Shown: piece by piece, positions 715 to 6,491 of the stretch | Position numbering within the stretch: position 1 is the first letter of the stretch | Layout of the letters: the number at the start of each line of letters is the position of its first letter | Assembly (NCBI GenBank): GCA_035387745.1 | Contig: DAOOON010000016.1 | Location: 10,021-16,569 of the forward strand | DNA from: an archaeon | GTDB taxonomy: Archaea; Iainarchaeota; Iainarchaeia; Iainarchaeales; CSSED10-239 | Direction of reading: 5' to 3' | Length of the DNA: 6,549 bases | Translations under genes and position numbers: made by a program | The notes under the pieces: generated by a model | The model's database searches: none | What the model was told of the DNA's origin: nothing | The model's input: only the letters and a program-made list of their open reading frames with translations

Positions 715-777
715 ATGAAATTAACTAAAATACTAATATTTGTTTTTATATTGCTTTTTATGCAAAACCTTTTTGCA
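715..777 (+). other. Signal peptide (MKLTKILIFVFILLFMQNLFA)
   Basis: Basic N-terminus (K2, K5), a hydrophobic core of about 11 residues, then NLFA before FNP. Confidence 0.7.
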
Positions 778-3234
778 TTTAATCCTACGTTTTATGTAGG
801 AGATGGAGTTTCTGGAACAGACCCAAATTGTCAAAATCCAAATTATTCTTCTATTCAGGCAGCCGCTAATAGCATAAAAAACGACGCAATACAAAATGCA
901 ATAATCATTGTTTGCCAAGGCACATATACAGAAAACATAAATCTAACAGATTTTGAAAATTTATCAATTATTGGAGAGAATGACGAAGTAATTATAAAAT
1001 CTCCAGCAACAGAAGTTAGTCCATTACAAGTATTTTTTTCAACAAATATAGGTCTTAAGAATTTAAAAATAATAGAGCCGAATTTAAAAGGCGTTGTTCT
1101 CAATAATGTTATAGATGTAATTTTAGAAGACATAAGCGTATCAGAAATTAAAGGGATAGCACAAGGAGAATATAGTTTAGCTGGGATATATATTTCTGGT
1201 TCTGATAACGTGACTCTTAAAGGAGACATAAAAATTGAAGACGTAGATGCCAGTATAAAATATACAAACGGTATTGAAATCCGGAATTCTGAAGGCATTG
1301 TTTTTGATACAGATTTATTAGTTGTTTATAATATAAAATCCAGTAACAATGCAACAGATTCATTATTAACTGGAATTTTAATAAATAACTCAGATATAGA
1401 AATAAAATCAAACGTTACAATTAGTGAACTTAACGGAAGAAAAGACGTTATTGGTTTTTTAGCAGAAAATGACTCAGTAGTAACTAACGAAAACGAAATA
1501 AATATGGGGGTTACTCAATCAAGGTCTTTGTCTGTAATTAAGGGATTTGCAATAGAGAATTCTAGAATTAATCTTAATGACAATACTCGCACAAATTTTT
1601 TCAGTATTGGCGGATTTCAAGCAGACACTTATGCATTTTACTTAGATAATGCGCAAGTTTCATGGTTAGGGGAATTAGAATTTATAAGGGTTATTGGAGA
1701 AGATAAGAGTTATGGACTATATATAAATAATTCAGATAATTTTATAGTTTCAAAAATAGATACAGACAATACTCAAATTGAAGGAGAGGTGAGATTAATA
1801 TATATAAAAGACTCTGATTCTGGTCAAATTAAAAACATTACAAACGGCAATGAAGAAATTATGATTACTACAAATGATTTTAGAGTTTTAAATATAATTA
1901 ATTCTTCTGTTAAGGTAAATAAAATGAGAATAACCTCTAATAGAGATTTGCCAAACTGTATAGTTGCAGAAAATAATTCAAATATCGAGTTAGAAGATAT
2001 TGATTTAACAAATTGTTCTGGAAATTATATTAAAAATAATAATTCAGAGATATCAATTAAAAATTCTCCTACAATCAATCTTGCAAAAATACAGTATGAT
2101 CAAAGTCAAAATTCAATTGTAGAAGTTTATAAGCCAGTAAAATTATTACCCTATAAAGATGGAAGAGATTTAAAATTAGACGAATTATACATTTATCACG
2201 ATTCAAAATATTTCTCAAATATATTTAATCCAGAAACAGAAATAGAATATGATTTATTATATTTTACAAAAGGCTATAAAAATGGAGTATTAGATTCTAG
2301 TTTCTATAATGATTATTATTTTACTGGAATAAAGTCTAGAGTTAATGAAAAAAAAGAAAAAATCACAATTAATGATTTTTCTTTTCAAGAAATATATATT
2401 GAATTTTTTATTGTGCCTAACGAGTTTTTAGAACAAACCGCAAAAGCAGGGGTTACCACCAAAAATTCAGACCATTTTTCTGTCACAGATAAAACTTGTT
2501 CAAAAACACTTGATAAAAGTTATGGTTGTTTTGATATAAAATTGTCTTTAGCTTTAGAAGACACAGAAAATGAGAGTTATACTCTTAAATTTAAATTGCC
2601 TGTTTCTTGGTTAACACAAAAGAATCTAAAGAAAGACGAAATTGTACTTTATCATTTAGAAAATAACAAATATGTTGAACAAAAAACCACTCCTTTAACA
2701 ATAGTTGATAATTATCAGATATTCATTTCTGAAGTAGATTCTTTCTCAGAATTTCAAATTGCAGAAAAGAAAGACGTTTCTGATGTTGATGTCCCAAAGA
2801 ATGATACACCCCCAGAGACAACACCCCCAGTAACAGAACCGCCAGCAGATTCAAATCAAACAAATCCAAATTGTAATATTAAATGTACAGAGAACCAAAT
2901 TTTAGATTATATCAACTGTAAATGTATAGACAAACAGACAGGAGTCTGTGATTTAGTTTGCGATTCAAACGAATATTTAGATACAGAGTTATGTCAATGT
3001 TTTGATTTAGCAAATGCCGGTTGTAGAGGTGCTTGTAATGTTGGAGAAACAATGAATTTAACAACCTGTACTTGCGTTCCTGTTGTTCTTGACGGCATGC
3101 CAATTTCTCAAGCAAACAATTTCTGGAGTTTTGTTCTTATAGTTTTAGTAATAGTAATTGCAATTATAGTTTTCTTAATAATTAGGAAAAACAGAAAAAA
3201 TAAGTTAAAAAAGCAATCAAAGAAAAAGAAATAA
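715..3234 (+). CDS. Secreted, C-terminally membrane-anchored surface (glyco)protein: parallel beta-helix repeats, PGF-pre-PGF-like domain, Pro/Thr linker, 3 Cys-rich repeats, TM helix and basic tail
   Basis: 839-aa ORF with an SD. It has an N-terminal signal peptide. The SIQAAANSI...IIIVCQGTYTENINLTDFENLSIIGE motif is typical of the first turn of right-handed beta-helix proteins. A dozen repeats of about 22-25 aa follow, of the form G(I/F)x(I/L)xNS-x-h-x-h. I counted 18 N-x-S/T sequons by eye. There is a C-terminal TM helix followed by a Lys/Arg tail. Confidence 0.85.
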   Translation: MKLTKILIFVFILLFMQNLFAFNPTFYVGDGVSGTDPNCQNPNYSSIQAAANSIKNDAIQNAIIIVCQGTYTENINLTDFENLSIIGENDEVIIKSPATEVSPLQVFFSTNIGLKNLKIIEPNLKGVVLNNVIDVILEDISVSEIKGIAQGEYSLAGIYISGSDNVTLKGDIKIEDVDASIKYTNGIEIRNSEGIVFDTDLLVVYNIKSSNNATDSLLTGILINNSDIEIKSNVTISELNGRKDVIGFLAENDSVVTNENEINMGVTQSRSLSVIKGFAIENSRINLNDNTRTNFFSIGGFQADTYAFYLDNAQVSWLGELEFIRVIGEDKSYGLYINNSDNFIVSKIDTDNTQIEGEVRLIYIKDSDSGQIKNITNGNEEIMITTNDFRVLNIINSSVKVNKMRITSNRDLPNCIVAENNSNIELEDIDLTNCSGNYIKNNNSEISIKNSPTINLAKIQYDQSQNSIVEVYKPVKLLPYKDGRDLKLDELYIYHDSKYFSNIFNPETEIEYDLLYFTKGYKNGVLDSSFYNDYYFTGIKSRVNEKKEKITINDFSFQEIYIEFFIVPNEFLEQTAKAGVTTKNSDHFSVTDKTCSKTLDKSYGCFDIKLSLALEDTENESYTLKFKLPVSWLTQKNLKKDEIVLYHLENNKYVEQKTTPLTIVDNYQIFISEVDSFSEFQIAEKKDVSDVDVPKNDTPPETTPPVTEPPADSNQTNPNCNIKCTENQILDYINCKCIDKQTGVCDLVCDSNEYLDTELCQCFDLANAGCRGACNVGETMNLTTCTCVPVVLDGMPISQANNFWSFVLIVLVIVIAIIVFLIIRKNRKNKLKKQSKKKK
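787..2079 (+). other. Right-handed parallel beta-helix (PbH1-like) repeat region
   Basis: Recurrent segments include GIYISGSDNVTLKGDIKI, NGIEIRNSEGIVFDTD, TGILINNSDIEIKSNVTI, KGFAIENSRINLNDN, YGLYINNSDNFIVSKI and NCIVAENNSNIELEDIDLTNCSG. Boundaries are approximate. Confidence 0.6.
2437..2772 (+). other. PGF-pre-PGF-like archaeal surface-protein domain (approximate boundaries)
   Basis: YTLKFKLPVSWLTQKNLKKDEIVLYHLENNKYVEQKTTPLTIVDNYQIFISEVDSFSEFQIAE follows the pattern F-x-V-x-K-x-W-L...h-x-L-Y-R...W-x-x-L-x-T...Y-x-x-x-A-x-T-x-x-F-S-x-F-A-I that I recall for TIGR04213-type domains. Confidence 0.45.
2791..2871 (+). other. Pro/Thr-rich linker (VPKNDTPPETTPPVTEPPADSNQTNPN)
   Basis: Low-complexity P/T segment containing two N-x-T sequons. 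This is typical of an O- or N-glycosylated stalk in archaeal surface proteins. Confidence 0.6.
2872..3075 (+). repeat. Three tandem 25-aa-period Cys-rich protein repeats, C-x3-C-x10-C-x-C
   Basis: CNIKCTENQILDYINCKC, CDLVCDSNEYLDTELCQC and CRGACNVGETMNLTTCTC have identical Cys spacing, with 7 residues between units. The nucleotide sequences have diverged. Confidence 0.8.
3121..3231 (+). other. C-terminal transmembrane anchor (FWSFVLIVLVIVIAIIVFLII) plus basic cytoplasmic tail (RKNRKNKLKKQSKKKK)
   Basis: A 21-residue uncharged hydrophobic stretch is followed by 16 residues, of which 11 are K or R (positive-inside topology). Confidence 0.8.
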
Positions 3235-3321: not shown

Positions 3322-5943
3322 ATGGCTATAGAAAAAACCAAAAGCGATGGGACAGATCCTTTTGAAAAGATAGAGAAAGGTAAAAACGACAAAAGTATCT
3401 ATGAGTCCGTTCCAGAAGAAGAAAAAGCAGATGAAAAGAAAACCAAAACCACTGCGCGCGAGCCCGAGCGAAACCGGCTCAAAGAGATTACACCAAAACT
3501 TGAATTTTTAACAGATCCAGAAGATGAAACAATAGTCTATATCGGAAGAAAAAAATCAGTTCTAAAAGAACATGGCTCAAAGTCTTGTGCGTTTTTAGGT
3601 AAAGTCTATGAAGATGATTGCAGAGACAAGAAAGTTTATTTAGATGGTCTTAACCCACACGTAGTATTTATTGATGGTTCAAGAGGTTCAGGAAAAAGCT
3701 ATGGCCTTGGAGTTATTGCTGAAGAGCTAACTACAAACAACCCATATATCGGCCAGATAGTTGTTGATCCAGTTGGAGTCTTTTGGTCAATGAAATACCC
3801 AAATCAAGAAAAAAAAGAACTTGAGGAATTAAAAAAATGGGATTTACAAGCAAAAGGCCTAAATAATATTAAAGTCTTTGTGCCTGAAGGAGTGGTTGGC
3901 AAAGTCTCTAAAGAAACATATGACGAAACCTTTTCTATGTATCCTTCAATGCTTCTTGCAGACGACTGGTGCCTAACTTTTGGAATTGATAGATTTAATC
4001 CAACAGGGTTATTATTAGAAAAAACTTTATCTTTTGTTAAGCACGGTTATAAATCAGGAGACCCAAGCGAGCAAGAAAAAACAACAGAACAGATTCCTGC
4101 AAAAGGCAATCTCTATAATCTTGACGATATAGTTTTTTGTTTACAAAATGCTTATGAATTTAAGTCTTCTTCTTCTGGTTACAAGCAAGACTCTATTAGA
4201 GCATTAGTTTCTAGATTTGAAGCCGCAAAGTCTTGGGGCATCTTTAGTGATCATGGAACTCCCCTTTCAAAACTTTCAAAAGAAAAGCAACTAACAATTC
4301 TTGATACTAGTTTTTTAGATGATAATATTACTGCTCTTGTTATTGGTATACTAGCACGAAGAATACTTTCTGCAAGAAAGCTTGTGACTAGACAAGACGC
4401 AATTAAAAAGTTTGATTCAAATTCAGAAAGCCCAGACGAGCTACTTGAAATTTCAATTCCCCCAACCTGGGTATATATTGATGAAGCCCACACTCTTATT
4501 CCTTCAGGAAACACCATAACTCCTGCAACTAATGCCATAATTGAATATGTTAAGCAAGGAAGAAGACCTGGCTGTTCAATGGTTCTAGCTACTCAACAAC
4601 CTTCAGCAATAAATTCTAAAGTATTATCTCAAGTTGATATTTTCTTAAGCCACAAATTAGTATTTAACGACGATATTCATGCTGTCCAGAAAAGAATGCC
4701 AGCAATTATTCCTGAAGCCTACAAGGACCCAAATTTTATTAAAACTCTTCCAGTCGGTGTGGCTTTAACAGGAGACAGAGGCGAAGAAACCAAAAGAGCT
4801 TTTATTCTTAAGATTAAACCAAGATTAAGTCAGCATGAAGGCAGAGACGCAGAAACCATTAGAGAGGTTCCAACTCTTTCCAAGAAGGAAATAATCAATT
4901 TCTGCTCAGACATGATCTACAAAAAATTATTGTCTTCAAAAACTCTTAAGACTAGTGATGCTAAAGACATTCTTGATGTTGTTAATTCTAAATATAATAG
5001 CGATGTTGTTTTTGATGAGATTTTAGTATCTCTAAGCAAGATGGGAATTTCTGAAAAAGACAACATTTTGTATTTTGAAAATAAAAACACTAAACAAAAA
5101 ACAGAAATCCCTAAAGATGAAATTCAAGATATCAATCGCGCAATTGAAAAATCAAATGAGCTTTCAGAAATATCAGAAGATATGCCATTAACTCCAGAAG
5201 AAATTGTGCCAGACAGCCTGCCAGTAATCCCTTCAAGAATCTCAAGAGACATAGCAATAAATATTGCAAACAGCACAAATAAGAAAAAGTTTTTATTTTT
5301 AAGAGAAGAAGGAATTATTTCTCAAGTTACTATGATTTATAGAAAAGTTTACAAGATTAATTTTAATATCTTTGATGAAGACGAAAACTATAAAACTTCA
5401 ACTTGCTTTATTGATTCTGTGTCTGGAGAGTTTATACATTTTGATGGCAGAAACTTTAAAGCTTCAAACGGCTTTAAGTTAGTTGAAGAGCTAAGCGTTG
5501 ACGATATTGTTCTTTTAGATAGTATCTTTGCTTGGAAAACCCCTGAAGAATTATCTGAGATTTTAGGATTTGATGCAAGAGAAATAAAACAAGACTTGAT
5601 TTCTTTAGTTGATAGAAACCTTGCTGACGTTGATATTATTAATAAAAAAGAAAGCTTTAGAATAAAGAGAAGAATAGATTTGCCATTCCACCCAGGATAT
5701 GATATTCTTACTTCAATAAACCATTTACCATTAAAGAAACAATTAATTTCTAAATCTGATATTCAAGAAGAAATATCCGAAGAAATCATTGTTAGCAGAT
5801 TAGAAAAATTATGGCCAGACATCGAGATAACGGAAATCTCTGAGATCTTCTGGCCTCTTTGGGAAATTATCTCAAAAGACAAGAGAGCAAATCAAAGAGC
5901 AATTATTGTTGATGCAGTTATTGGTCAAATCATTGATGCATAA
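3322..5943 (+). CDS. HerA/FtsK-clade P-loop ATPase (COG0433/DUF87-like core) with a charged N-terminal tail and a roughly 360-aa C-terminal extension containing a wHTH-like segment
   Basis: Motifs are collinear with HerA: VYLDGLNPHVVFIDGSRGSGKS (Walker A), VVDPVGVFW, LTILDTSFL...ALVIGILARRI, WVYIDEAHTLIP (Walker B), QGRRPGCSMVLATQQPSAI..VLSQVD, LPVGVALTG and KPRLSQHEGRD. The ORF track opens at TTG 3313; I prefer ATG 3322 (MAIEK...). Stop is TAA 5941-5943. Confidence 0.85.
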   Translation: MAIEKTKSDGTDPFEKIEKGKNDKSIYESVPEEEKADEKKTKTTAREPERNRLKEITPKLEFLTDPEDETIVYIGRKKSVLKEHGSKSCAFLGKVYEDDCRDKKVYLDGLNPHVVFIDGSRGSGKSYGLGVIAEELTTNNPYIGQIVVDPVGVFWSMKYPNQEKKELEELKKWDLQAKGLNNIKVFVPEGVVGKVSKETYDETFSMYPSMLLADDWCLTFGIDRFNPTGLLLEKTLSFVKHGYKSGDPSEQEKTTEQIPAKGNLYNLDDIVFCLQNAYEFKSSSSGYKQDSIRALVSRFEAAKSWGIFSDHGTPLSKLSKEKQLTILDTSFLDDNITALVIGILARRILSARKLVTRQDAIKKFDSNSESPDELLEISIPPTWVYIDEAHTLIPSGNTITPATNAIIEYVKQGRRPGCSMVLATQQPSAINSKVLSQVDIFLSHKLVFNDDIHAVQKRMPAIIPEAYKDPNFIKTLPVGVALTGDRGEETKRAFILKIKPRLSQHEGRDAETIREVPTLSKKEIINFCSDMIYKKLLSSKTLKTSDAKDILDVVNSKYNSDVVFDEILVSLSKMGISEKDNILYFENKNTKQKTEIPKDEIQDINRAIEKSNELSEISEDMPLTPEEIVPDSLPVIPSRISRDIAINIANSTNKKKFLFLREEGIISQVTMIYRKVYKINFNIFDEDENYKTSTCFIDSVSGEFIHFDGRNFKASNGFKLVEELSVDDIVLLDSIFAWKTPEELSEILGFDAREIKQDLISLVDRNLADVDIINKKESFRIKRRIDLPFHPGYDILTSINHLPLKKQLISKSDIQEEISEEIIVSRLEKLWPDIEITEISEIFWPLWEIISKDKRANQRAIIVDAVIGQIIDA
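3676..3699 (+). other. Walker A / P-loop (GSRGSGKS)
   Basis: G-x4-GK-S, read directly in frame. Confidence 0.9.
4468..4488 (+). other. Walker B (WVYIDEAH)
   Basis: A hydrophobic strand followed by DE. HerA proteins typically show h-h-h-h-EEAH at this position. Confidence 0.85.
5476..5670 (+). other. Winged-helix-turn-helix-like segment in the ATPase C-terminal extension (approximate)
   Basis: LSVDDIVLLDSIFAWKTPEELSEILGFDAREIKQDLISLVDRNLADVDIINKKESFRIKRR has the helix / helix-turn-helix / beta-wing pattern of MarR/TrmB-type wHTH domains. By-eye call only. Confidence 0.4.
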
Positions 5944-5956
5944 AAGTGAAATAATC

Positions 5957-6292
5957 ATGTTAGATCTACTTAAGAAAAAAGAAGAAAAATCTTTAAGCAT
6001 TGATTCTTTTATTTTAGATAGCTGTAAAGCAACGCCAGGTTTTGAGTTCTTTCCAAAAAAGCCAATAAAGATTGATTTAGAAAAATTATTAATGAAACTA
6101 AGAACTAAAAATTACTATATAGAAAAAGATAATTCTCCGTTTTTAATAATTTTAAAAACAAAAAAAGGCACAGTAACTATCTTTTCATCTCTAAAGATAA
6201 TTATCAGAGACACCACTCAGGAAAAAGTTGCTAAAGTCATTTTAACAGATCTTTTAAAAACCATAAACGAATTTTTATATAAGCAAGGGTGA
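5957..6292 (+). CDS. Small hypothetical protein (about 111 aa); C-terminal half resembles a single TBP-fold repeat
   Basis: The ORF is open from 5906. ATG 5957 is the first start after the upstream stop and is preceded by AAGTGA 8 nt upstream. ATG 5936 would overlap the ATPase stop by 8 nt and is an alternative. KIDLEKLL...GTVTIFSSLKIIIRDTTQEKVAKVILTDLLKTI resembles the LDLEKV...ALLIFSSGKLVVTGAKS-helix pattern of archaeal TBP repeats. TGA stop is at 6290-6292. Confidence 0.6.
   Translation: MLDLLKKKEEKSLSIDSFILDSCKATPGFEFFPKKPIKIDLEKLLMKLRTKNYYIEKDNSPFLIILKTKKGTVTIFSSLKIIIRDTTQEKVAKVILTDLLKTINEFLYKQG
6251..6262 (+). promoter_or_regulatory. TATA-like box CTTTTAAAAACC, candidate tRNA-Ser promoter, embedded in the 3' end of the small CDS
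   Basis: It is centred about 26-27 nt upstream of the tRNA 5' end (6283), the canonical archaeal TATA-to-start distance. A near-identical box lies at 3261-3271. Confidence 0.4.
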
Positions 6293-6371
6293 CTGAGTCT
6301 GGTTGAAGGTGCTAGTCTCGAAAACTAGATGCGTGTAACAGCGCACATGGGTTCAAATCCCATCCCTTGCG
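6283..6371 (+). tRNA. tRNA-Ser (anticodon CGA), class II with long variable arm, no encoded CCA
   Basis: Acceptor stem GCAAGGG (6283-6289) pairs with CCCTTGC (6364-6370), with discriminator G6371. The D stem is 3 bp, ACT/GGT, with a GG-containing loop. Anticodon stem CTAGT (6312-6316)/ACTAG (6324-6328) has loop CTCGAAA, giving anticodon CGA (6319-6321). Variable arm is TGCG(6330-6333)/CGCA(6342-6345). T arm is ATGGG/CCCAT with loop TTCAAAT. Confidence 0.92.
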
Positions 6372-6410
6372 GAGCCTTTTTCAAAAGCCGCGGGAAAAAC
6401 GTGGTTTTAC
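6372..6410 (+). repeat. Copy B of the structured element of about 45 nt (partner at 5-50), forming the tRNA trailer
   Basis: See copy A. GAGCCTTTTTCAAAAG-CCGCGGGAAAAACGTGG-TTTT. Confidence 0.45.
6377..6408 (+). terminator. tRNA trailer terminator candidates: a T5 tract, then a 5-bp hairpin followed by T4
   Basis: TTTTT (6377-6381) starts 6 nt after the tRNA. CCGCG (6388-6392) pairs with CGTGG (6400-6404), including one G-U pair and a 7-nt loop, and is followed by TTTT (6405-6408). Confidence 0.45.
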
Positions 6411-6491
6411 TAGACTTGCGTGCAATGGTTAATTACTTTGTGTTTAAAGAAAAAAAAATTCTAAGGCAAAAACCTAATTAAAAGAAAGTAG

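Follow-up and report, generated by a model that had tools for sequence, protein, structure and literature searches.

A HerA-clade ATPase with a C-terminal tail of winged-helix and PepSY-like domains in Iainarchaeota

Motors of the HerA clade are known as partners of the NurA nuclease or of defence effectors, and a HerA-type gene that stands beside neither raises the question of what its motor serves. Such a gene lies in the 6,549-nucleotide stretch of DNA analysed here (the window), positions 10,021 to 16,569 of contig DAOOON010000016.1 (assembly GCA_035387745.1) from a member of the Iainarchaeota. A preliminary description of the window had pointed to a HerA-type ATPase with a long C-terminal extension, and this observation was confirmed. 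Sequence and fold place the protein in the HerA clade of the FtsK-HerA superfamily. As to its function, we tentatively favour a NurA-independent DNA translocase that is steered by its own tail and has a housekeeping role, a reading to which we give slightly less than an even chance. The architecture of the tail and the pairing with a half-TBP protein would surprise a specialist; that the protein is HerA-like was already flagged by automated annotation.

The ATPase gene and its motor core

The open reading frame (3313/3322-5943, + strand) yields a product of 873 amino acids from the ATG at 3322, which is the likely start because orthologues begin with MA/MP-(I/V)EK. The identical protein (P0001) is present on three independent assemblies. 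The window has a G+C content of about 30%, and its contig is a fragment of an archaeal chromosome with housekeeping neighbours (L21e, Rpb4, TBP, AglB/STT3, BacA and thioredoxin). The gene, the motor and its motifs are located as follows.

3322..5943, + strand: HerA-clade ATPase gene with C-terminal tail, stop codon included (open reading frame list, family alignment)
3658..4866, + strand, residues 113-515: RecA-like HerA motor (Pfam DUF87, HerA matches in the PDB, invariant columns)
3676-3699, + strand, residues 119-126: Walker A, GSRGSGKS (motif location)
Residues 149-152: DPVG (motif location)
Residues 326-330: ILDTS (motif location)
4471-4491, + strand, residues 384-390: Walker B, VYIDEAH (motif location)
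4555-4605, + strand, residues 412-417 and 423-428: QGRRPG and ATQQPS (motif location)
Residues 476-484: LPVGVALTG (motif location)
4828-4848, + strand: SQHEGRD, invariant (family alignment)

Every motif of the collinear HerA set quoted in the preliminary description was thus found, and in HerA order. Pfam detected DUF87, the HerA central domain, with an E value of 7.6e-10. Most Walker and sensor residues were invariant in an alignment of 31 family members with 43-87% identity; the invariant catalytic residues were G119, R121, G122, G124, K125, S126, D387, E388, A389, H390, Q425 and Q426. The same alignment contained an invariant basic stretch (R346, R347, R352, K353 and R357), and the core was closed by invariant P500, R501 and S503-R508, with the consensus PRxSQHEGR. 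Since the catalytic residues are invariant, the enzyme is very probably active.

A sequence search of the PDB returned HerA-type chains only (8xau, 9c1m, 8yho, 8wiv, 8ziq, 8j4u, TdpA and 9x1l), the best match being 8xau with an E value of 1.8e-8. The family profile again matched HerA-type and TdpA chains, and besides these only proteins with a winged helix-turn-helix (wHTH). A full-length AlphaFold2 model was built on the 31-sequence family alignment, with a mean predicted local distance difference test score (pLDDT) of 75.7, and compared with the PDB by Foldseek. The best 50 matches were all HerA (E about 1e-13) and included Thermococcus kodakarensis HerA-NurA, Sulfolobus HerA 4d2i, Deinococcus HerA, Sir2-HerA, DUF4297-HerA and TdpAB. 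The claim of a HerA/FtsK-clade ATPase was therefore borne out for the HerA clade, while identity of the core with VirB4, KaiC or FtsK was excluded by the Foldseek and PDB profile matches, no such chain being among those listed. The FtsK_SpoIIIE domain of Pfam gave no match in the window protein and matched four of the 31 members weakly (best E value 0.0078). A transmembrane segment was absent from the window protein as well, the maximum hydropathy over 19 residues (Kyte-Doolittle) being 1.34. Without an FtsK domain and a membrane anchor, the protein is not an FtsK. The HerA equivalogs of NCBIfam gave local matches of 23-38 bits, against cut-offs of 800-970; the window protein scored 23-24 bits on NF040819 and NF040937, whose cut-offs are 970 and 800.

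The C-terminal tail

The extension, first put at about 360 residues, measured 358 (residues 516-873) and was kept at full length in the family, with a query coverage of 93-100%. It was also modelled separately with AlphaFold2 (residues 516-873, 22-sequence alignment), and the model had a pLDDT of 86.7. Two winged-helix domains and two PepSY-like modules follow one another in the tail in this order, with an acidic linker between the first two domains:

4870..5079, + strand, residues 517-586: winged-helix-like domain 1 (AlphaFold2 topology in both models, pLDDT 81-94)
5080..5208, + strand, residues 587-629: acidic disordered linker (pLDDT <50)
5209..5469, + strand, residues 630-716: PepSY-like module 1 (AlphaFold2 pLDDT >90, hhalign to module 2)
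Residues 695-707: CFIDSVSGEFIHF, the motif quoted for the first module (motif location)
5470..5676, + strand, residues 717-785: wHTH domain 2, of MarR/TrmB/ArsR/MecI type (Pfam, PDB profile, Foldseek)
Residues 740-768: the wHTH stretch of the preliminary description (motif location)
5677..5940, + strand, residues 786-873, core 816-873: linker helix and PepSY-like module 2 (Pfam PepSY in orthologues)
Residues 861-873: IIVDAVIGQIIDA, the quoted C-terminal motif (motif location)

The wHTH that had been claimed for the extension was supported by three kinds of comparison. In Pfam, TrmB matched 15 of the 31 members, and HTH_27, IclR and MarR matched too. The tail profile run against the PDB found MecI with an E value of 6e-5, and also Lrs14-like proteins, AdcR and SmtB. 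Foldseek of the tail returned wHTH domains of the MarR, ArsR and TFE-alpha type. In the family, the region of the recognition helix and wing of wHTH 2 together with PepSY-like module 1 was basic, with a median pI of 9.4.

The first winged-helix domain was predicted as three helices and a beta hairpin spanning residues 521-585, with N555 invariant and K557 and Y558 nearly so. It gave no match to a sequence family, and its assignment as a winged helix is structural only. Homology between the two winged-helix domains was considered and found unsupported (hhalign probability 9%). The domain stands directly after the motor and had been overlooked in the preliminary description. The linker behind it had a median net charge of -7 and a length of 29-65 residues across the family.

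Module 1 was modelled as a helix and a sheet formed by a long beta hairpin, with the motif DSxTGEFxHF...FxESxG; E703, S715 and G717 were invariant in the family alignment. Module 2 consisted of helices and a second hairpin sheet, with the motif WPxW...R..hhDAhxGxhh. That the extension holds two similar beta-hairpin modules had been proposed before, and the two proved to be related beyond chance: profile-profile comparison with hhalign gave a probability of 87% and an E value of 4e-6 over 39 columns, while controls of modules against winged helices stayed below 1%. On this sequence evidence the two modules are homologous. The PepSY model of Pfam (PF03413, gathering threshold 24 bits) matched five of the 31 family members. 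It lay above the threshold on module 2 of the orthologues P0091 (29.1 bits, over the full model), P0049 (34.4 bits) and P0112 (24.9 bits), in segments that aligned to window residues 816-873. Module 1 is tied to PepSY only through hhalign to module 2. The modules share with PF03413 a helix with three strands and the terminal motif h-h-D-a-x-t-G-x-h; they differ from it in being cytoplasmic and fused to an ATPase, and Pfam recognises neither module 1 nor module 2 of the window protein, both being too divergent. Foldseek of the modules returned no fold match in the PDB. Their PepSY-like nature had also been overlooked in the preliminary description.

The tail as a whole had no counterpart in the PDB or among the predicted viral structures of BFVD, where only generic wHTH matches with E values of about 0.03 were obtained. 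Since it also lacks a Pfam or NCBIfam model, the tail was rejected as a well-described domain routinely fused to HerA.

FtsK/SpoIIIE and Streptomyces TraB consist of a hexameric pump, a linker and a C-terminal winged helix which directs the motor on DNA. The window protein may be likened to them by analogy of design, in that a motor is followed by C-terminal winged helices. The differences are that these proteins belong to another clade and were not among the PDB and Foldseek matches listed, and that the window protein has two winged-helix domains interleaved with PepSY-like modules and no N-terminal membrane domain.

The N-terminal region

In the preliminary description the first 60 residues or so were taken for a charged, probably disordered tail standing in place of a full HAS barrel. 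Two regions were distinguished here:

3322..3495, + strand, residues 1-58: disordered, highly charged N-terminal tail (pLDDT, composition)
3496..3657, + strand, residues 59-112: small conserved beta-rich domain at the position of the HAS barrel (AlphaFold2, conservation)

The charged, disordered tail was found as described: residues 1-53 had a pLDDT below 50 in the AlphaFold2 model, and aspartate, glutamate, lysine and arginine made up 50% of the first 58 residues. The N-terminal tails of orthologues were acidic and 42-314 amino acids long. The remainder of the claim was not supported, as a small beta domain appears to remain at the HAS position. Residues 59-112 were modelled with strands at 71-74, 89-95 and 104-108 and one helix (pLDDT >80), and their mean column conservation was 0.62. 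Because these residues still form a conserved beta-rich domain, the HAS region appears to be reduced and not simply absent. The model thus indicates a HAS barrel shrunk to about 54 amino acids rather than replaced by disorder.

Family and distribution

A word-indexed search returned 898 proteins. The best 120 were 797-1121 amino acids long; 119 of them covered 87-100% of the query and one covered 63%. The only names they bore were 'DUF87 domain-containing', 'ATP-binding protein' or 'HerA-like ATPase/predicted transcriptional regulator'; their sources were metagenome-assembled genomes of Iainarchaeota/Diapherotrites. When one genome was scanned for each GTDB species, a relative was found in 261 species genomes, and the 80 loci kept from these were overwhelmingly labelled Iainarchaeum, Forterrea, AR10 or 'archaeon'.

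An exhaustive HMMER search with the tail profile over 1.84 billion representative proteins retrieved 373 proteins with E<=1e-3, of which 177 had E<=1e-10 and 46 had E<=1e-30. In the weaker matches only the PepSY-wHTH-PepSY part was covered, at the C-terminus of proteins of 500-1490 amino acids. From the distant matches longer than about 400 amino acids, 60 proteins were picked and scanned with Pfam. DUF87 was present in 46, HerA_C in 32, TrwB_AAD_bind in 14, DUF835 in 12, SAP in 6 and a LAGLIDADG intein homing endonuclease in 3. Because 46 of the 60 carried DUF87, tail and motor are regarded as evolutionarily coupled. The named sources of these distant relatives included Micrarchaeota, Nanoarchaeia, Theionarchaea and one 'Euryarchaeota archaeon'. 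The tail is accordingly not a peculiarity of one protein; its occurrence on many archaeal HerA-like ATPases marks out a broader branch that has no name, and the window protein is the long Iainarchaeota form of that branch. Neither the family nor its tail was found described in Pfam, NCBIfam, PADLOC or PHROGs, nor in such literature as could be searched. The suggestion of an undescribed subfamily was therefore upheld, as there is no curated family that the protein fits (the HerA equivalogs falling far below their cut-offs) and no paper was found.

A viral or mobile origin was also considered. It was rejected, since 2.9 million viral contigs gave a single irrelevant P-loop match and the PHROGs matches were merely local ATPase matches.

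Several relatives had unusual gene structures. In two of Micrarchaeota type (P0213, L092:8854-12975; P0214, L093:4752-8345) a LAGLIDADG intein lay within or beside the ATPase domain. Inteins tend toward conserved, important genes. In P0227 (L090:657-4283), P0236 and P0294, DUF835, sometimes with the DNA-binding motif SAP, stood between the motor and the PepSY-wHTH-PepSY tail. At L096:7043-10304 the gene was apparently split into a 312-amino-acid DUF87 reading frame and, after 20 nucleotides, a 767-amino-acid reading frame which bears the tail. At three loci (L032, L056 and L063) the archaeal gene was on contigs deposited as metagenome-assembled genomes of Chloroflexi, Falkowbacteria and Peregrinibacteria; the contigs of L063 and of the archaeal L064 are almost identical, and this points to mis-binning.

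Neighbourhood of the ATPase gene and the question of NurA

To compare neighbourhoods, open reading frames within 6 kb of the ATPase gene were called and clustered in 87 loci. The lack of a NurA partner first described for the window was supported by this set, in that none of the recurring clusters was recognised as NurA, Mre11 or Rad50. The family flanks contained genes for ribosomal proteins, tRNA synthetases and sugar-nucleotide metabolism, and distant relatives likewise stood among housekeeping genes. Convergent sugar-nucleotide genes (GlmU-like hexapeptide transferase, PGM and GlmS) were recurrent neighbours.

These results bear on the simplest alternative, that the protein is the ordinary HerA of its lineage, whose partner in DNA end resection is a NurA encoded elsewhere (along with Mre11-Rad50), and that the tail is no more than a lineage-specific decoration. 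The motor resembles the HerA of HerA-NurA complexes (4d2i, 9x1m and 7wrw) in its RecA-like fold with a helical insertion and in its Walker A, Walker B and sensor motifs, and the mechanism of a ring-shaped DNA translocase may be presumed by analogy. T. kodakarensis HerA-NurA and Sulfolobus HerA are among the best structural matches, the housekeeping distribution of the family would suit such a role, and at one locus (L091) a gap of 2 kb separates a distant family member from a NurA gene, the family member being next to a gene for an XPD-type helicase. However, the NurA gene at this locus is immediately followed by a DUF87 gene of its own, so that the tailed ATPase is to be regarded as a paralogue of the NurA-associated HerA. 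The window protein also shares only 11-20% identity with the HerA of HerA-NurA complexes, adds the tail of 358 amino acids (winged helix, PepSY-like, wHTH, PepSY-like), and has a HAS region, where NurA would dock, that is cut in the model to about 54 amino acids behind a disordered charged tail. Because NurA was not recognised as a neighbour, the scores fell short of the equivalog cut-offs and the HAS barrel appears reduced, the protein does not belong to the canonical HerA-NurA family, and we consider an ordinary HerA distinctly unlikely.

A second alternative would assign the ATPase to anti-virus defence, in a system of the HerA-effector type. The best PDB sequence match and the PADLOC matches were anti-phage HerA proteins, among them mad8, which aligned over the whole core of the window protein, and the HerA-clade core is indeed shared with Sir2-HerA (Nezha), DUF4297-HerA, TdpAB and mad8 of the MADS system. 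The matches were nevertheless weak, at 28-61 bits, and only local. Among the recurring clusters there was no adjacent effector of the Sir2, DUF4297 or nuclease kind, and the anti-phage HerA proteins differ in lacking this tail. The position of the gene is conserved among housekeeping genes across the phylum, which is unlike defence islands, and a role in defence appears extremely unlikely.

The gene directly upstream of the ATPase gene suggests a third alternative:

715-3234, + strand: gene for a predicted surface protein of 839 amino acids (PGF-pre-PGF domain, TIGR04213, 31.6 bits)

This protein has a signal-like N-terminus, a cysteine-rich stretch, a C-terminal transmembrane helix and a KKK tail. 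ATPases of the FtsK-HerA type commonly power transfer devices, and the window protein might be the cytoplasmic motor of an envelope device for DNA or protein transfer (CedB-, TraB- or VirB4-like), perhaps one for cell-cell contact of DPANN archaea. The position of the ATPase gene behind the surface protein gene and the TrwB_AAD_bind matches in 14 of the 60 distant relatives would be in line with this. The ATPase has no transmembrane segment, however, the neighbourhood clusters included no conserved membrane partner, and the contexts were those of housekeeping genes. The surface protein, whose conservation the preliminary description had marked for checking, turned up in no other genome among the compared loci and was rejected as a partner of the ATPase. 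A transfer motor is thus very unlikely.

Genes for proteins of chromosome biology occurred near some family members. An SMC-type gene lay 3.6-5.7 kb downstream in 11 of the 87 loci, and another was near the family member at L091; two distant lineages thus had such a gene at a distance of a few kb. SepF was encoded 5 kb downstream of the family gene in L096, and a PRC-barrel gene was present in L094. Two of the SMC-type ATPases (L088:18286-21252 and L089:16929-19886), of about 985 amino acids, matched SMC_prok_A with their two halves, at positions 2-496 and 693-1170 (E value 9e-165). They lacked the hinge and carried a single CPxC at the apex of the coiled coil, resembling the zinc hook of Rad50. 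The gene was therefore considered as a nearby Rad50; this was rejected because, in spite of the hook-like CPxC motif, the heads of the SMC_N protein are of SMC type, and there is thus no evidence for a Mre11-Rad50-HerA cluster.

The small TBP-domain gene downstream

Only one neighbour recurred on the same strand and immediately downstream in the 87 loci:

5957..6292, + strand: small gene for a single-TBP-domain protein of 111 amino acids, a candidate partner (Pfam TBP, family hidden Markov model, neighbourhood)

The ATG at 5957 is the most likely start; it is 13 nucleotides past the HerA stop codon and has GTGA 8 nucleotides upstream. Pfam TBP matched the small protein with 24.5 bits (cut-off 22.9). 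A hidden Markov model of the small-protein family, built free of TBP, matched both repeats of the genome's own TBP with an E value of 5.7e-4. The family comprised 40 clusters, many of them with a precomputed PF00352 assignment. With about 98-111 amino acids and a single repeat, the small protein is not TBP proper, which has two tandem repeats and about 180 amino acids. A genuine two-repeat TBP of 213 amino acids is encoded 7.7 kb downstream on the same contig.

The preliminary description had singled out the downstream small gene for comparison between loci, and it proved to be a neighbour in about a third of them. It followed directly after the ATPase stop codon in about 29 of the 87 loci and lay within 6 kb in four more. 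An adjacent small gene was present in every close relative and in several relatives with 42-47% identity.

From Thermococcales, monopartite TBP-domain proteins of about this size are described without an assigned function (PMC3597702). The small protein resembles them, as far as their description goes, in having about 100 amino acids and one TBP-type domain and in being distinct from the two-repeat TBP. Linkage to a HerA-like ATPase is a difference, as it is not among the points on Thermococcales in the available parts of Brindefalk et al. 2013 (PMC3597702). Domains of the TBP fold also act as plain binders of nucleic-acid duplexes, RNase HIII being an example (PMC3597702, PMC4132731).

A TBP domain in an operonic partner raises the possibility of a factor of transcription or chromatin. 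The ATPase would then be an ATP-driven remodeller which, with its TrmB/TFE-like winged helices and the half-TBP, acts at promoter or nucleoid complexes, loosely as Mot1 acts on TBP. The matches of wHTH 2 to TrmB, MarR and TFE-alpha/TFIIE-alpha and the SAP motifs in some relatives would fit such a factor. We know of no HerA-clade ATPase in transcription, however; most loci have no TBP-domain partner, nor have the distant relatives, the wHTH family matches are generic, and a TBP-fold domain may do no more than bind a duplex. This possibility is therefore regarded as distinctly improbable.

Proposed role of the tailed ATPase

For the NurA-independent, tail-steered translocase the following mechanism is proposed. 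The motor would form a hexameric ring in the cytoplasm and pump double-stranded DNA through its pore by ATP hydrolysis, as HerA does. In place of a NurA docked on a full HAS barrel, each subunit would carry a flexible targeting arm. The winged helices may bind DNA or a DNA-bound partner and thereby load, orient or anchor the motor, a role that would be analogous to that of the gamma domain in FtsK and of the wHTH in Streptomyces TraB. Protein-protein contacts, either from arm to arm or with the small TBP-fold protein, could be made by the PepSY-like sheets, and the TBP-fold protein, where present, might be an accessory duplex binder. The cellular role would most likely be the handling of chromosomes (segregation, resolution or repair) and not defence, conjugation or virus packaging.

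The function of a sequence- or partner-directed DNA translocase, as envisaged in the preliminary description, is plausible on the strength of homology and analogy. The basic region of wHTH 2 and PepSY-like module 1, the SAP motifs, the inteins and the nearby SMC-type genes are compatible with it. Its housekeeping character is suggested by the occurrence in 261 species genomes, the housekeeping flanks, the inteins in relatives and the lack of viral relatives.

Several points weigh against this proposal. That the protein forms a hexamer, translocates DNA and binds it through the tail is inferred by analogy. The wHTH 2 of the window protein is acidic overall (net charge -4), and its recognition helix shows a low column conservation of about 0.4, as would suit a protein ligand no less than DNA. 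PepSY domains usually occur outside the cytoplasm, and Pfam PepSY does not detect module 2 of the window protein, which is too divergent. The TBP-domain gene is adjacent in only about one-third of the loci and does not stand beside distant relatives. The lack of NurA refers to recurring clusters near the gene, NurA elsewhere in Iainarchaeota genomes not having been searched for. The hints of chromosome biology from neighbouring genes (SMC-type, SepF and PRC-barrel) are anecdotal.

The movement and resolution of chromosomes at division are poorly understood in most archaea. The genomes of DPANN archaea are minimal, and retained genes tend to matter. If the proposal is true, a housekeeping HerA-type motor with neither of the known partners would represent a third deployment of the HerA engine, and the family is a concrete and testable candidate for the handling of archaeal chromosomes. 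It would also give monopartite TBP-domain proteins and cytoplasmic PepSY-like domains their first cellular context. In its most far-reaching form the proposal makes the protein a functional counterpart of FtsK, a NurA-independent HerA-type pump that its winged-helix/PepSY-like arms, aided in Iainarchaeota by the half-TBP, would load or orient on DNA for the segregation or resolution of chromosomes. This specific version we consider rather unlikely; if true, such a counterpart would serve DPANN archaea, Theionarchaea and relatives, in which no such motor has been identified.

Other genes of the window

Two further genes were assigned in the window:

6283-6371, + strand: tRNA-Ser(CGA) gene (ARAGORN and Rfam, 53.6 bits)
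51-644, + strand: stand-alone gene for an RNase H-fold/PolB-exonuclease-like protein of 197 amino acids (Pfam RNase_H_2, E value 6e-8; DNA_pol_B_exo2, E value 1e-5)

The tRNA gene overlaps the last 10 nucleotides of the small TBP-like reading frame. Because it occupies the site, the listed reading frame of 50 amino acids at 6329-6481 is spurious. In the closest relatives, too, the gene for the protein of 197 amino acids precedes the ATPase gene; with the window this makes nine loci, four of which (L001-L003 and the window) represent the same genome.

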